Origin: an uncultured Chloroflexia bacterium
GTDB lineage: Bacteria; Chloroflexota; Limnocylindria; Limnocylindrales; CSP1-4
NCBI GenBank assembly: GCA_963745405.1
Contig: CAVUWY010000002.1
Coordinates: 1,317,221 to 1,381,220 of the forward strand
DNA length: 64,000 bases
Direction: 5' to 3'
Shown here: positions 19,777 through 50,546 of the stretch, piece after piece
How positions within the stretch are numbered: the stretch's first letter is position 1
How the letters are laid out: each line of letters starts with the position of its first letter
The notes under the pieces: model-generated
Databases searched by the model: none
What the model saw: only the letters and a program-made list of their open reading frames with translations
What the model was told of the DNA's origin: nothing
Position numbers and translations under genes: made by a program

Positions 19777-19852
19777 TGGCGCGCCCGACAGGATTCGAAC
19801 CTGCGACCTTCGGCTCCGGAGGCCGACGCTCTATCCACTGAGCTACAGGCGC
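19777..19852 (-). tRNA. tRNA-Arg(CCG)
   Basis: GCGCCTGTAGCTCAGTGGATAGAGC...CTCCGGA...GGTTCGAATCC...GCGCCA cloverleaf. Confidence 0.97.
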
Positions 19853-38993: not shown

Positions 38994-40139
38994 CTACGCG
39001 GTCGTGCCCGGTTCCGTGAAGCGGATCCCACGGGCGGCGGCGTCCCTCGCGAAGAACCGGAACAGGCGGTCGCCCTCCTCCTCGATGGCCCGGCGATCGG
39101 CGGTGCTCAGCGGGTCGTATGGCGCGATCTCGAGGCCGACAGCGTCACCGCGGCCCGACCGGACGATCTTCCAGGTCGCCCGAACCCAACCGTCGAGGAG
39201 GACCATCGGGGCCCCGAGGCCGTGGAGGATCCGGTCGCGATGCTCATCGGGGATGATCCGGCCCCGGTCGGCGTAGGCGACGAGGACGTTGTCGAACTCG
39301 CCGATGAACCGCGGCGGGGCGGGGGTCGACGGGTCCGGGAGCGGCCCGTCCGGGAGGTCGAAGAGCTCGCGGCCGTGCTCGTCGGTGAACGTGCGAAGCC
39401 GCGGGTGAAGGCGCTCGAAGGTCGGTCGCAGGCCGGCCAGGCCCGACCATGCGGATGCGTCGCCCACGGTCGCCGGACCGAAGCCGGCGAGGTAGCGAAG
39501 GACGACGTCGTCGGCCGCCTGGGAGGTCGAAGGGGGCCGGCCGAGCCAGCCTTCCATCGTCGTCCAGGTGGCCTGACCGGATCGGCCCCAGAGGCCTCGG
39601 GGCGGCACCTGGACCAGGGGGATCAGGTACGTCGCCGCATAGGCCAGTGACGATGCGTCGCGATCCGGCCAGTGCACCTGGAGGAGGCGCCCGAGCTCGG
39701 CCCTGGTCCGCGGCCGCTCCTCGAGGAGAGACCGCCCGGCCTCGACGACGGCATCGATGTCGAGCCCGGCGAGCGCCCGGGCGAAGCCGGTGGCCATGAA
39801 CCCGCGCTCGATGACCGGACGCACGACTGACCGCATCGCCAGCGCGTCGTCGGCCGAGACGAGATGGATGGTTCCCCGCATCAGGGTGGCCCGGACCGCC
39901 GTCCTGCCGGCGAGGAGAACGGCCAGGTCGGCGGGCGCGAAGCGCTCGAGGCGCGACCAGAGCCCGACGTAGGGGGCGTTGGGGACCTGCGACTGCATCC
40001 CCGCGAGGCGCTCGATCATCTCGAGGGGCGCGGCGGCGGCCCTCTCGAGAAGACCCTGCCGGGCGAGCAGTGCACGGTTCAGGGAGCGCCGGTCCAGGAT
40101 GGGGCCGTAGGCGGGCGTGACGGTCCGCTGCGGTCGCAT
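38994..40139 (-). CDS. AlkZ-like (HTH_42) DNA glycosylase
   Basis: LNRALLARQ.LL, QSQ motif, MRGTIH, EFDN. Confidence 0.85.
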   Translation of the reverse strand: MRPQRTVTPAYGPILDRRSLNRALLARQGLLERAAAAPLEMIERLAGMQSQVPNAPYVGLWSRLERFAPADLAVLLAGRTAVRATLMRGTIHLVSADDALAMRSVVRPVIERGFMATGFARALAGLDIDAVVEAGRSLLEERPRTRAELGRLLQVHWPDRDASSLAYAATYLIPLVQVPPRGLWGRSGQATWTTMEGWLGRPPSTSQAADDVVLRYLAGFGPATVGDASAWSGLAGLRPTFERLHPRLRTFTDEHGRELFDLPDGPLPDPSTPAPPRFIGEFDNVLVAYADRGRIIPDEHRDRILHGLGAPMVLLDGWVRATWKIVRSGRGDAVGLEIAPYDPLSTADRRAIEEEGDRLFRFFARDAAARGIRFTEPGTTA

Positions 40140-40215
40140 CCGACCCATGATATGGCGGTACAGGCGTTGCGGAGTGCGCTACCTTCCCTGTGCACCCCGC
40201 CGTTCGAGGTCCTCG

Positions 40216-43200
40216 ATGACCTGTCCCACATGCGGCAGTACGAACCCAGCCGGCGCGAAGTTCTGCAACGAGTGCGCGACCCGCCTCAACGCGACCTGCC
40301 CCTCCTGCGGAGCGGCGAATCCGCCGACGGCGAAGTTCTGCTCCGAGTGCGCGACGAACCTGTCGGGGACTTCGGCGGGCGAGCCGTCGGCGGCGATCGC
40401 CGCGCCCGCGACGGCTGCCCCCGTCGCCGAGCGTCGCCTCGTCAGCGTCCTCTTCGCCGATCTCGTCGGCTTCACCCCGTTCTCCGAAGAGCGCGATCCC
40501 GAGGCCGTCCGCGAGACGCTGACCGCCTACTACGACAGGGCCCGGCTCGCCGTCGAGCGCCACGGCGGCACGATCGAGAAGTTCATCGGCGATGCCGTGA
40601 TGGCGGTCTGGGGCACGCCGGTCGCCCACGAGGACGACGCAGAACGGGCCGTCCGCGCGGCCCTCGAGATAGTCGATTCGACGCGGGACCTGGGGGCGGG
40701 GATCGAGGCCCGGGCGGGAGTCCTTACCGGGGAAGCGGCAGTCAACCTCGGGGCCGTAGGCCAGGGCATGGTCGCCGGCGACCTCGTCAACTCGGCCGCC
40801 CGACTCCAGGCCGCTGCGCGGCCCAGCGCGGTCCTCGTCGGCGAGGCGACGATGCGGGCATCGGAGGCCGCGATCGGCTACGAGCCGATCGGTACGCTCG
40901 ACGTCAAGGGCCGTTCGACGCCGATCGAGGCGTGGCAGGCCCGCCGGGTCCTCGCCCAGCGCGGCGGCCACGGCCGGACCGAGGCGCTCGAGGCGCCGTT
41001 CGTCGGCCGCGACGACGAGCTGAGGCTGCTCAAGGACACGCTCCATGCGACGGGCCGCGACCGCCGGGTCCGCCTCGTCTCGATCACCGGCCCGGCCGGC
41101 ATCGGGAAGAGCCGGCTCGCCTGGGAGCTCGAGAAGTACATCGACGGCGTCGTCGAGCCCATCTACTGGCACCGCGGCCGCTCGCCCTCGTACGGCGACG
41201 GGGTCGCGTTCTGGGCGCTCGGCGAGATGGTCCGCCGCCGGGCCGGCCTCCTCGAGGGCGACGACGACCAGACGACCCGGTCGCGCATCGCCGCCACGCT
41301 CGCGGAGTACGTCGGTGACCCGGAGGATCGCGCGTGGGTCGAGCGAGCCGTGCTCGCGCTCCTCGGTCTCGAACCGGCTCCGCCCGGGGGGCGAGACGTC
41401 CTCTTCGCCGGCTGGCGGATGTTCTTCGAGTACGTGAGCCGGCGCGGCACGGCCGTCCTCCTGTTCGAGGACGTCCAATGGGCCGATAGCGGTCTCCTCG
41501 ACTTCATCGACCATCTCCTCGAGTGGTCGAAGGGAGCGCCGATCCTCGTCGTCACCCTCGCCCGCCCCGAGCTCATCGAGCGGCGCTCGGAGTGGGGCGC
41601 GGGGAAGCGCCGTCTCACCTCCGTCGCGCTCGAGCCCCTCGGCGACGGCGCCATGCGAGAGCTCCTCAGCGGCCTCGTGCCCGGCCTGCCGGAACCGTCC
41701 GTCGCGGCGATCCTCGCCCGCGCCGACGGCATCCCCCTCTACGCGGTCGAGACGGTGCGGATGCTCCTCGCCGACGGCCTCCTCGAGCGATCGGGCGACG
41801 CCTACCGCCCGACCGGTGACCTGACCCGCCTTGCGGTCCCCGACACGCTGCGTTCGCTCATCGGGGCGCGGCTCGACGCCCTCGACCCGGACGACCGCCG
41901 CCTCATCCAGGACGCGGCGATCCTCGGGCGGACATTCATTGCGGCAGCGCTGGCGGAGATCGCGGGAACGGACGAGACAGCGGTCGACAGCCGCCTGCAC
42001 GGCCTCGTGCGAAGCGAGATCCTCGAGCTCGAGGCCGACCCGCGTTCCCCGGAGCGGGGCCAGTACGGCTTCGTCCAATCGCTCATCCGCGAGGTCGCGT
42101 ACGACACGATCAGCCGTCGCGATCGACGTACCCGCCACCTCGCGGCCGCCCGATACTTCGAGTCACTCGACGACCCCGAGATCGCCGGCGCGCTCGCCTC
42201 CCACTACCGCTGGGCCCACGACGCCTCCGAGGCGGGCCCGGAAGCGGCGGCCCTCGCCGGGCAGGCTCGACTCGCACTGCGCGCCGCGGCCGATCGGGCG
42301 GCGGCACTCGGCGGGCACCAGCAGGCGGTCGGCTACCTCGAAGATGCGCTCGACGTCGCCGACACGCCGGCCGATCGGGCCGAGCTCCTGGAACGAGCCG
42401 CGACGTCAGCCGACTCGATGACCGACTACGCCGCCGCCGAGCGGTTCGCGACGCGGGCCGTCGAGGAGTTCCGGACTGCCGGCGACTCGCTCGGCGCTGC
42501 CCGGGCGACGGCGCTCCTCGGCTGGAGCGTCATCAATGCCGGCGACGTCAAGCGCGCGTCGCAGCTCCTGGCCGCGGCCCACGCCGAATTGCCCGAGAGC
42601 GAACGGGGCACCGAGATCGAGGTGATTCTCCTCGTCCACCTCTCACGGGCGGCCTTCCGCGGGGGCGAGATGGCGAAGGCGGCCGAGTTCGCCGACCGAG
42701 CTCTTGCTCTGGCCGAGCCGCGGAACGACGAGGCCCTCATCGCGGAGGCCTTCATCAACAAGGGCTCGAGCTACGACTTCGACGGACGCGTGCGTGAGGC
42801 GACGGCGCTCTACGAGGCCGCCCTCCGCATCGCCCGGGCGAAGGGGCTCATCGCGAGCGAGTTGCGGGCGATCAACAATCTCGGCGGAGCGACGTGGGGT
42901 GCCGATCCAACGGCCGCGGTGGAGATCGTCCGATCTGGCGTCGATCTCGCGGCCAGGGTCGGGAACCGGGGGATGGGCGCCTGGCTGGTCGGAACCTATG
43001 GTTACTTCTCATTCATCCTGGGTGTCGATTGGCCGGGCCGGGTGGCGATCCTCGAGGAGGAGCTCGCGCGCAATCGCGCTCCCGGCGATCGGCTGCGGCT
43101 CGTCAGCGTCCTCGTCCAGTACGGTGGAGCGATGGGCGTCGACGTCTCTGGACGGCTGGCGGAGCTCGCGGAGCTCGAGGAGGGGATCAGCGATCCGCAG

Positions 43201-43764
43201 CTTCTCAGCGGGGCTCAGATCGCCCGCACCGAGGCCGCGCTCGCGGCCGGCGACCTCGATGCGGCGCTCGTGGCAGGCCTGCGCACCGTCGAGATCTTTC
43301 CGGACTACGGAGACTGGGGCCTGCGGGCGGTCGTCCGGGTGGCCATCGCCCGGGGCGACGCCGAGCTGGCGACGACGGGCCAGGTCGGTCTCGACGCCCT
43401 CGCGTACGGGGACCGGGCGACGAGCTCATGGCGGGCGTGGGCGGCCGCGGTCGTCTCTGCCCTCGAAGGCAGCGGGATGGAGGCGAAGGCGGCATTCCGG
43501 ACCGTGCTCGCCGAGCTGCGGGCGCTCGGCTTCGACCTCGAGATCGGGCGGACGACCATCGACATGGTCCACCTCTTCGGCCTCGACGATCCGTTCGTCC
43601 GCGAAGCGGCCGAAGAGTCGAAGGTCCTGTTCGAGCGGATCGGGGCCCGGGCATGGTCGGAGCGGCTCGACGAGGCCGTGGCCCTGGCCCGAGGCGACCA
43701 CCCCCCGCGATCGGAGACCGGGGTTGCCCCCGACGCGGAGGTCAGTCCGCTCGGTCGGCCCTGA
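40216..43764 (+). CDS. Class III adenylate/guanylate cyclase with double Zn-ribbon, STAND ATPase and TPR
   Basis: CxxC repeats, LFADLVGFT, KFIGDAVMA, VN.AARLQ, GIGKSRL. Confidence 0.92.
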   Translation: MTCPTCGSTNPAGAKFCNECATRLNATCPSCGAANPPTAKFCSECATNLSGTSAGEPSAAIAAPATAAPVAERRLVSVLFADLVGFTPFSEERDPEAVRETLTAYYDRARLAVERHGGTIEKFIGDAVMAVWGTPVAHEDDAERAVRAALEIVDSTRDLGAGIEARAGVLTGEAAVNLGAVGQGMVAGDLVNSAARLQAAARPSAVLVGEATMRASEAAIGYEPIGTLDVKGRSTPIEAWQARRVLAQRGGHGRTEALEAPFVGRDDELRLLKDTLHATGRDRRVRLVSITGPAGIGKSRLAWELEKYIDGVVEPIYWHRGRSPSYGDGVAFWALGEMVRRRAGLLEGDDDQTTRSRIAATLAEYVGDPEDRAWVERAVLALLGLEPAPPGGRDVLFAGWRMFFEYVSRRGTAVLLFEDVQWADSGLLDFIDHLLEWSKGAPILVVTLARPELIERRSEWGAGKRRLTSVALEPLGDGAMRELLSGLVPGLPEPSVAAILARADGIPLYAVETVRMLLADGLLERSGDAYRPTGDLTRLAVPDTLRSLIGARLDALDPDDRRLIQDAAILGRTFIAAALAEIAGTDETAVDSRLHGLVRSEILELEADPRSPERGQYGFVQSLIREVAYDTISRRDRRTRHLAAARYFESLDDPEIAGALASHYRWAHDASEAGPEAAALAGQARLALRAAADRAAALGGHQQAVGYLEDALDVADTPADRAELLERAATSADSMTDYAAAERFATRAVEEFRTAGDSLGAARATALLGWSVINAGDVKRASQLLAAAHAELPESERGTEIEVILLVHLSRAAFRGGEMAKAAEFADRALALAEPRNDEALIAEAFINKGSSYDFDGRVREATALYEAALRIARAKGLIASELRAINNLGGATWGADPTAAVEIVRSGVDLAARVGNRGMGAWLVGTYGYFSFILGVDWPGRVAILEEELARNRAPGDRLRLVSVLVQYGGAMGVDVSGRLAELAELEEGISDPQLLSGAQIARTEAALAAGDLDAALVAGLRTVEIFPDYGDWGLRAVVRVAIARGDAELATTGQVGLDALAYGDRATSSWRAWAAAVVSALEGSGMEAKAAFRTVLAELRALGFDLEIGRTTIDMVHLFGLDDPFVREAAEESKVLFERIGARAWSERLDEAVALARGDHPPRSETGVAPDAEVSPLGRP

Positions 43765-43891
43765 TGAGCTCCAGTAGCTCGTCCCGGTTCGCGACGTGGC
43801 GGTAGAGCGTGGTCGTGCCGGTGTCGAGGGACGCCGCAAGGGGGCTCATCGAGAGCGCCTCGAGCCCCTCGACGTCGGCCAGTTCGACCGC
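43763..43891 (-). pseudogene. TetR HTH remnant
   Basis: AVELADVEGLEALSM/LAASLDTGTTTLYRHVANRDELLEL with frameshift. Confidence 0.65.
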
Positions 43892-43943
43892 TCAGGTGAA
43901 GAGAAAGGTTAAGGAATTTACACCGACGAACATGCAAAAACCC

Positions 43944-43972
43944 TTGGCTTTCATGCACTGAGGCAGTACAGT
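43944..43972 (+). promoter_or_regulatory. Sigma70-type promoter
   Basis: TTGGCT-17 bp-TACAGT with AT-rich upstream tract. Confidence 0.6.
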
Positions 43973-43978
43973 AATGAG

Positions 43979-44158
43979 GCTGCGAGAGCGGCCAGCTGCC
44001 CCAGCACCAAGGTCATGGGTAGGTAGGGTCAGGGTAGTCGGTGCAGCCGACGTGATAGATGCCCTTGATGCGCGGCAGAAGGCGTACCGTTTCGGCGGAT
44101 CGCACCTTCACCGGGACAGCACCGGAGCGGTTCCTTCGGGAACCGCTCCGAACTTTTT
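43979..44158 (+). ncRNA. Candidate stand-alone structured small RNA
   Basis: Lies between promoter and terminator, nested complementary segments, no RBS-led ORF. Confidence 0.5.
44123..44158 (+). terminator. Intrinsic terminator
   Basis: CGGAGCGGTTCC-TTCG-GGAACCGCTCCG-AACTTTTT. Confidence 0.8.
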
Positions 44159-44207
44159 ACCCCCGAAACCCGTCGCGAAGTGCGTGCGCCCGCGCGTCGG
44201 TGGAGCG

Positions 44208-45086
44208 TCAGCCGCGTGAGGCGAGCGGGTCGTAGCGCTCGACGAACGGCGCTCGCCACGCAGCCGCCTCGAACGGCTCCGTGTAGTAATGCGTCTCGCG
44301 GCGGACCCGGCCGTCGCCCACGTCGACGATCCCGCCGATGAACCAGCGCCCTGCGTCGGGATAGTCGTTGACGCCCTCGATGACGACGATCGGGCCGGCG
44401 CCGTGGACGCGGATCGGGGTGAACATCGCGGTCAGCTCCCAACCCTCGCCCGGGGCCCGCGACTCGTGGAAATTGAGCGTCGGGTAGCCTGGATAGTCGG
44501 CGTGGATGGCCACGTCGGCCTCGTGGTTGGGGATCCGCTCGCCGGACTGCGGCCAGTCCGTCGTCCAGCCCGGCGCCCGGTAGCGGCGGAGGGTCTCGAA
44601 ATCGCGCACCGCCATCGCCTTGGCGTAGCCGTCGGTCAGCTCGCTGAGTGCCGCCCCGCGGAGGTCGGCGGCCGGCGGCAGGTCCGGAGGCGTCGCCCGA
44701 CCGTCGATCCGCTCGACGTGGGCCGCCCGCCAGGCGGGCGCCTCGAGCGTCTGTCCGAAGTACTCCGTCGTGGCGGCGATGCGCTCGCCCTCGAGCTCGA
44801 GGATGGCGAGAAGGAACCAGTCGCCGGAATCTGGGTAGGTGACGCTCCCCTCGACGGTCCACAGCTCGTCGCGCCCGACGATCCGGCGGATCGAAGTGAG
44901 GACGGGCATCCCGCCCGGAAAGGCGTCCTCGATGCTCCGCAGCGCCTCCCGGCCGCGGATGAGCTCGCCCGATTGCGGCCAGCGCCCGACGTGGCCGGCG
45001 GTCCGGATGGCGTCGGACGCCCCGACATCGCCCGCCTCCAGGGCGTCGACCCAGCGGCCGACCGCTCCGGGCGCCTGCACAGCCAT
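44208..45086 (-). CDS. Tandem SnoaL/NTF2-like protein
   Basis: Two WPQSGE...Y...EAxAWRA repeats. Confidence 0.8.
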   Translation of the reverse strand: MAVQAPGAVGRWVDALEAGDVGASDAIRTAGHVGRWPQSGELIRGREALRSIEDAFPGGMPVLTSIRRIVGRDELWTVEGSVTYPDSGDWFLLAILELEGERIAATTEYFGQTLEAPAWRAAHVERIDGRATPPDLPPAADLRGAALSELTDGYAKAMAVRDFETLRRYRAPGWTTDWPQSGERIPNHEADVAIHADYPGYPTLNFHESRAPGEGWELTAMFTPIRVHGAGPIVVIEGVNDYPDAGRWFIGGIVDVGDGRVRRETHYYTEPFEAAAWRAPFVERYDPLASRG

Positions 45087-45172
45087 CGATGGATCCCCTC
45101 TCCTCAGCGGGTACCCGGCCATCGTAGGTCGGCGGTCAACGACCCCCGACGCAGCGCCCGGGTCGGCGCCCG

Positions 45173-50469: not shown

Positions 50470-50546
50470 GGACCCGTGGTGTAGCGGCCCAACATGCCAG
50501 CCTGTCACGCTGGAGATCGCCGGTTCGAATCCGGTCGGGTCCGCCA
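50470..50546 (+). tRNA. tRNA-Asp(GTC)
   Basis: GGACCCG...CTGTCAC...GGTTCGAATCC...CGGGTCCGCCA. Confidence 0.97.

Follow-up and report, generated by a model that had tools for sequence, protein, structure and literature searches.

Here we describe a new structured RNA class from the Limnocylindria, a class of the Chloroflexota: a single-copy, independently transcribed small RNA, encoded on the plus strand, of which a core of about 50 bases is nearly unchanged across three families of the class from soil and freshwater. The gene is real and has a conserved promoter and a terminator of its own. It was found in a window of 64,000 nucleotides (the whole stretch of DNA that was analyzed), where the primary transcript extends over about 43978-44158 (about 180 nt, counted from an inferred start) and may be trimmed to about 131 nt (43989-44119). 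Soils and lakes commonly harbor Limnocylindria, which are known almost solely from metagenome-assembled genomes; to our knowledge, nothing is known about their RNA biology. A literature search on Chloroflexi, 6S and structured noncoding RNA, with supplements outside its scope, returned nothing on this RNA, no publication pairing "Limnocylindria" with "RNA motif" was found, and a search on the letters of the motif gave unrelated primers only.

The small-RNA gene and its transcription signals

The gene lies between two full-length protein genes. Its promoter boxes and the A run were read from the sequence, and the terminator was found by a terminator scan. Families of the class are designated f1 to f5.

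40117-43764, plus strand: flanking gene for a 1215-aa cyclase/AAA/TPR protein
43908-43922, plus strand: AT-rich upstream promoter block GTTAAGGAATTTACA, conserved among f1 relatives
43936-43940, plus strand: A run just 5' of the -35 box
43944-43949, plus strand: -35 box TTGGCT, a conserved block in relatives (CTTGGC, CTTGAG, TTGAC)
43967-43972, plus strand: -10 box TACAGT, 17 nt past the -35 box, conserved in relatives
44123-44158, plus strand: intrinsic terminator, with a 12-bp stem and TTCG loop (hairpin 44123-44150) and a T run (44154-44158)
44208-45122, minus strand: flanking gene for a 304-aa, weakly SnoaL-like protein

An initial annotation had proposed an independent transcription unit at this place, located between convergent genes and carrying an AT-rich tract, a TTGGCT-17-TACAGT promoter and a 12-bp TTCG-loop terminator with a T tract. 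All of these proposals held. The GC content, which is about 70% in the window, dips to 0.50-0.56 at 43850-43999; both boxes are present and conserved; the terminator was confirmed; the neighboring genes converge on the unit; and RNA-library contigs from three studies cover the small RNA. In relatives, the -10 box takes the form TANNNT (TAGACT, TAGGAT, TACACT) with its register unchanged, and a hairpin of altered sequence stands at the position of the terminator. A consensus promoter scan did not list the TTGGCT/TACAGT site, which fell below its threshold because only 8 of the 12 consensus positions match. From the position of these boxes, transcription would start at about 43978-43980.

The AT-rich block GTTAAGGAATTTACA is probably UP-element-like, or else the site of a dedicated regulator, and it is unique in the genome (whole-genome search allowing up to 3 mismatches). 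A related AT-rich block (GTAAAGGAATCTTAG-like) is present at the f4 loci, where it lies about 11 nt nearer the -35 box than in f1. This shift amounts to about one helical turn and would fit a helix-face-dependent site, bound either by a factor or by the polymerase alpha subunit.

Regarding the flanks, the 1215-aa product is a large signaling protein that combines a double zinc ribbon, an adenylate/guanylate cyclase domain, an AAA_16 ATPase domain and TPR repeats, and on the other side the SnoaL-like gene is followed by a cyclophilin gene on the minus strand. A 35-aa open reading frame (43742-43849, minus strand), which contains TLYRHVANRDELLELI, overlaps the 3' end of the 1215-aa gene. It has no match in Pfam at such a length, but to our eye it looks like a TetR-type helix-turn-helix and may thus be a gene remnant.

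Fold, invariant loop and transcript ends

We aligned 100 homologues to R1, a full-length covariance model built from 84 sequences. The elements of the RNA are as follows.

43978-43993, plus strand: 5' hairpin H0 (GGCUGC GAGA GCGGCC), variable in sequence, a hairpin of at least 4 bp in 99/100 homologues
43995-44002, plus strand: 5' strand of P1, GCUGCCCC, partner 44113-44120; compensatory changes in 5/7 pairs, 96.1% of cells pair
44004-44016, plus strand: 5' strand of P2, partner 44059-44071; compensatory changes in 9/12 counted pairs, 94.3% of cells pair
44017-44036, plus strand: G-rich 5' strand of the internal loop, GGGUAGGU(N)GGGU(N)AGGGUA, every G invariant
44037-44051, plus strand: P3 hairpin, 6 pairs with loop GCA; compensatory changes in 5/6 pairs, 100% of cells pair
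44052-44058, plus strand: 3' strand of the internal loop, GUGAUAG, with A(N)AGAU invariant through 44060
44059-44071, plus strand: 3' strand of P2, from covariation
44072-44077, plus strand: junction with the word YGGCA(G), whose last G (44078) is the first base of P4
44078-44109, plus strand: P4 hairpin, variable in sequence, with a UUCG loop here; a hairpin of at least 5 bp in 91/91 rows with a segment longer than 25 nt
44113-44120, plus strand: 3' strand of P1, GGGACAGC, from covariation

In this fitted alignment, 95.6% of the cells pair, compared to 31-41% when the partners are slid, and 21 of the 27 pairs show changes on both sides; none of 500 shuffles attained the observed values. Since the alignment was fitted to the structure and the related genomes are not independent, the result of RNAalifold on an unfitted MAFFT alignment matters as a check. 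It returned P1 (43995-44002/44113-44120), P2 (44004-44016/44059-44071) and P3 (44037-44042/44046-44051), and 13/27 pairs were compensatory on that alignment. The P2 partner of CAAGGTCAT is ATGCCCTTG, and locus L016 provides an example of compensation in this helix, with CGUGAUCAU facing AUGAUCACG. Furthermore, paired positions contain about 248 G-U cells versus fewer than 20 A-C cells, which places the RNA on the plus strand, in agreement with the orientation of the promoter and the terminator.

In the family of the window's genome, the predicted fold is a three-way junction, Y-shaped and not a rod. The initial annotation had drawn a long rod with a central bubble, and some of its elements recur in the covariation fold: the GCTGCCCC/GGGACAGC pairing is P1 and GTCGG/CCGAC is P3, both with covariation support, and the CCGT-TTCG-GCGG hairpin is real and forms the top of P4. 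The two inner helices, AAGGT/ACCTT and TCAGGGTA/TGCCCTTGA, fared differently. Over their 13 pairs in the 100 homologues, 84.1% of the cells are pairable against a shuffled mean of 84.0%, with 227 of 500 shuffles as high as the observed value, and none of the 8 pairs of TCAGGGTA/TGCCCTTGA changed on both sides. These complementary stretches reflect conserved sequence and not selection for pairing, although they may form a minor alternative conformer. Because the inner helices lack covariation and CAAGGTCAT is taken up by P2, the long rod with a central bubble was not borne out.

The fold differs in part between families. In f4, P3 has a GAAA loop on a 6-bp stem and P4 is absent, the domain being closed by another short helix (GAUUC/GAAUC) that is unproven because it is invariant.

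Between P2 and P3 lies an asymmetric internal loop with strands of 20 and 7 nt, which is nearly invariant over the three families. The unpaired, G-rich 5' side of a bubble proposed by the initial annotation corresponds to the longer strand, and it is indeed unpaired and invariant: variation is limited to the linker N, with 0-2 extra nt, and a single further N. This G-rich motif is present in 29/29 BLAST relatives and in 20/20 f4 loci found with the model, two sets of which neither was selected by the motif. On the opposite strand, 33 of 43 distinct cores have UG at the first two positions. The loop linker differs in length by 1-3 nt between families, the first linker reading U in f2, UN in f1, and UUN or UCA in f4; because such single-base changes in length exclude a reading frame, the RNA is not coding. 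The initial annotation had likewise seen no open reading frame led by a ribosome-binding site inside the unit, and we found no conserved one. Outside the loop, the word YGGCAG is nearly invariant in f1, and CGGCAG precedes the terminator in f4; the word is unpaired and conserved in both families.

The library contigs bear on the ends of the transcript. In a freshwater run (X3), a 157-nt contig with a depth of 30 covers 43995-44119, with adapter-like letters at both ends and six more bases of the organism's own sequence before 43995. Two contigs of a soil run (X4), with depths of 71 and 32, end at 44119 beside the same letters, which we take to be Illumina adapter; the flank contigs of that run have a depth of 2-3, are only about 85% alike and possibly belong to other organisms. 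A contig from another soil run (X2) begins at 43989 beside adapter-like letters and continues to 44393, and as it crosses the terminator into the next gene, it is no evidence of a discrete RNA. Contigs from two studies start at 43989, inside the 3' half of H0, which may therefore be trimmed, and those of two studies stop at 44119, beside the adapter-like letters. Since such contigs give neither the level of an RNA, nor its strand, nor its true ends, we take these data as a hint only, namely of an abundant RNA of about 131 nt that is cut back to the domain closed by P1.

Distribution, gene neighborhood and known RNA families

A BLAST search with 43900-44170 gave one copy in the window's genome and hit 40 of 41 close genomes. 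With R1, we found exactly one match per genome in 96 of the 151 genomes of the class, distributed over f1 (42/44), f2 (6/6) and f4 (47/50, or 45/48 without the unpublished genomes G127 and G153), and none in f3 (0/49) or f5 (0/1). The small RNA is retained in the f2 genomes of about 1.1 Mb. When a core model (R2) was run on a sample of the phylum, matches were confined to the same three families, with none among 136 Chloroflexota genomes of other families. Five f3/f5 genomes contained no divergent copy at an E value of up to 1 (f3: 0/4). Being absent from f3 and f5, the RNA is not indispensable to the class. The viral contigs searched gave no match. Finally, an exact-motif scan of species genomes returned at least 120 matches and, among those listed, nearly all are titled Chloroflexota or Limnocylindria. 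The listed matches L057, L076, L063 and L044 bear titles outside Limnocylindria (Polarisedimenticolia, Sulfomarinibacteraceae, Anaerolineaceae and "bacterium") and may represent binning errors or transfers; L044 falls in with the f2 type.

The ancestral position of the gene is directly upstream of tRNA-Arg(CCG). A tRNA is located within 1.5 kb in 57 of 170 loci, and in every case this is tRNA-Arg(CCG), located downstream in the same orientation; within 500 nt, it is found in 45 of the 154 loci that have enough flank. Where this tRNA follows the RNA, it shows, in our reading, -10-like and -35-like boxes of its own. In the window, tRNA-Arg(CCG) (19777-19852, minus strand) lies 24 kb upstream on the opposite strand from the RNA, and the linkage is therefore broken. 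A tRNA-Asp(GTC) (50470-50546, plus strand) is located 6 kb downstream of the RNA, and the region between the two tRNAs is rearranged. At four tRNA-Arg(CCG) loci from f3 and f5, neither the G-rich motif nor the RNA was found, and in 3/4 of them the tRNA is directly preceded by what we read as a divergent protein gene start.

No protein-coding gene consistently adjoins the RNA, according to a clustering of the neighbors at 69 loci. The two largest clusters consist of low-complexity open frames typical of GC-rich DNA. The sole real recurring neighbor is an unannotated open reading frame of about 570 aa (572 aa), upstream and on the same strand, at 13/69 loci (10 in f4, 3 in f1); an example is L181:3366-5081 (minus strand).

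We then compared the RNA to known families. At gathering cutoffs, Rfam 15 identified two tRNAs in the window and nothing else. In 43700-44400, there was nothing credible at E values of up to 10, and four homologous loci from f1, f2 and f4 gave tRNA matches only. SRP RNA, tmRNA, RNase P RNA and 5S rRNA were all located elsewhere in the genome, above cutoffs, and the locus was therefore rejected as the genome's copy of any of them. We also rejected a Y RNA or YrlA, as no family in Rfam matched and Ro60 (TROVE, PF05731) was found in 0/101 genomes of the class, and an Hfq-dependent small RNA, as Hfq (PF17209) was likewise found in 0/101. Two of the checks that the initial annotation had proposed gave a result: no Rfam family matches the RNA, and the collection of homologues revealed conservation and compensatory changes. 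Its suggestion of a new small-RNA family is supported by an independent, single-copy, conserved and covarying unit that has no Rfam match.

The raiA-motif and OLE RNAs, two orphan structured noncoding RNAs of bacteria, resemble the small RNA in being conserved, covarying, highly structured and stand-alone, and in having been discovered by comparison before their function was known. They differ from it: there is no sequence or model match, the small RNA is far smaller than OLE, and within the Chloroflexota its occurrence is limited to three families of a single class.

Candidate modes of action

Our preferred explanation, to which we give an even chance of being correct, is that the RNA folds and works in trans, its invariant purine loop docking a conserved macromolecule. 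The RNA would act in trans as a folded particle, in which the helices would fix the purine-rich loop in a set three-dimensional shape, and this shape would dock a conserved protein or another stable RNA, for scaffolding or for sequestration. Antisense pairing, cis regulation and a role as mRNA would each be ruled out as its mode of action. The variable linker length argues against an mRNA, as described above, and a riboswitch or cis-regulatory leader was rejected because the terminator follows directly and the next gene is on the opposite strand. With regard to pairing, the invariant stretch of about 50 nt spans both strands of the loop and goes far beyond what a pairing seed needs. The invariance as such fits ligand binding or catalysis equally well as the docking of a macromolecule.

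Several properties are marks of a core cellular component, namely a single copy, a strong-looking promoter, retention in streamlined genomes of 1.1 Mb, about 50 invariant bases and presence in environmental RNA libraries. The partner, once found, would add a new ribonucleoprotein or RNA-RNA system, and the small RNA could explain global RNA-based control in a class without detectable 6S RNA or Hfq. The invariant G-rich loop offers a compact target for structural work.

The initial annotation had offered a 6S/Ms1-like RNA as one of its two readings. Ms1, an RNA of actinobacteria, is about 300 nt long and binds the core enzyme of RNA polymerase. Membership in that family is not supported: the small RNA has a Chloroflexota host, a length of about 130-180 nt and no Rfam match. 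With 6S RNA, it shares a single copy, independent transcription, a probably high abundance, similar size and paired ends, as well as a large single-stranded loop between helices, in a host class without detectable 6S. Indeed, the 6S model RF00013 had no match in 43700-44400 at E values of up to 10, none in the window's genome at up to 1 and none in the 151 genomes of the class, yet across the phylum it detects 6S in 34 of 151 genomes. As the other housekeeping RNAs are present and RF00013 is silent, 6S alone among the classical RNAs is "missing" from the genome. One could thus imagine a functional 6S analogue that binds RNA polymerase, its G-rich strand mimicking an opened promoter. The strong-looking promoter and the ends possibly trimmed to the closing stem would suit this idea, and UAGGU(N) followed by GGG in the loop bears, in our reading, a loose likeness to the clade's -10 boxes with their G-rich discriminator.

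Nevertheless, we consider such an analogue unlikely. RF00013 matched 6S in only 5 of 14 control genomes, so that its silence proves little, and there was no Rfam match even at E values of up to 10. The RNA is predicted to be Y-shaped, with loop strands of 20 versus 7 nt and a distal helix of 6 bp beyond the loop, and the pairings that would make a rod are unsupported. Additionally, none of 20 canonical 6S loci in other Chloroflexota is near a tRNA, and f3 lacks both RNAs. Membership in the 6S family itself is not supported by covariance model, fold or synteny.

The docking of a macromolecule also has to be weighed against base pairing, in which the G-rich strand or YGGCAG would serve as a seed against C/U-rich sites in mRNAs. 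The 20-nt strand is predicted to be single-stranded, YGGCAG is a conserved unpaired word in both f1 and f4, and the gene has its own promoter and terminator, like those of trans-acting small RNAs. However, besides an invariance that extends over both loop strands, 9-mers complementary to the invariant parts of the loop occur just 2-11 times in the window's genome, the RNA's own copy counted, a G-rich seed is unable to pair with G-rich ribosome-binding sites, and Hfq was found in none of the 101 genomes searched. We therefore regard a base-pairing small RNA as quite improbable.

Very unlikely, in our view, is a ligand-sensing or catalytic RNA, in which the G tracts (GGG-UA-GG-U(N)-GGG-UNA-GGG) would make up a G-quadruplex-like core for binding a small molecule or ion, or the whole would be a ribozyme. 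All G residues are invariant while linkers vary in length and sequence, which is the pattern of a G-tetrad core, and such invariance is typical of aptamers and ribozymes. Against this, the linkers UA and U.A are themselves invariant, and the G-quadruplex option of ViennaRNA predicted none in the minimum-energy folds of 8/8 representatives. Moreover, there is no downstream gene to regulate and no match to a known riboswitch or ribozyme family.

Lastly, the docked macromolecule could be a tRNA. The small RNA would then be a free-standing, tRNA-docking particle born beside tRNA-Arg(CCG), with the purine loop as a double T-loop-like module that stacks on the tRNA elbow. Double T-loop-like modules occur in the ribosomal L1 stalk, RNase P and T-box Stem I, and in RNase P the strands of the module likewise flank a hairpin. 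Lehmann et al. (2013, PMC3664808) give the core of the module as AG..A plus UG..A, with an extra U before the closing A in the L1 stalk. The two strands of our loop flank P3 and contain invariant AGGG(U)A and UGGG(U)A on one side and UGA(N)A on the other, and the ancestral place of the gene directly upstream of tRNA-Arg(CCG) would fit. The L1-stalk region of the genome's own 23S rRNA shares a 15/16 word with P3 and its 3' flank and contains loop words similar to GUAGG and UGAAA, but this similarity is insignificant (score of 38 versus 36.5 ± 4.5 for shuffles), and the 15/16 word is peculiar to f1, P3 being different in f4. Likewise, neither the rRNA operon nor the RNase P RNA of the genome resembled the RNA more than shuffles did. 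The UG..A candidate shows variation at its U and G in 10 of the 43 distinct cores, though both would be expected to be highly invariant. Adjacency of genes is no proof of binding, and the tRNA apparently has -10 and -35 boxes of its own.

Overall, tRNA docking is quite unlikely, and we treat it as a lead and not as a finding, resting on T-loop-like words, a nonsignificant L1-stalk likeness and the linkage to a tRNA. The likeness to the module consists in purine-rich, nearly invariant strands with words of the AG..(U)A and UG..A type beside a short helix, and the difference in a free-standing small RNA with a varying UG in one candidate T-loop. If tRNA docking were true, this would be the first known trans-acting small RNA with such a module, and it could hold, chaperone or report on tRNA.
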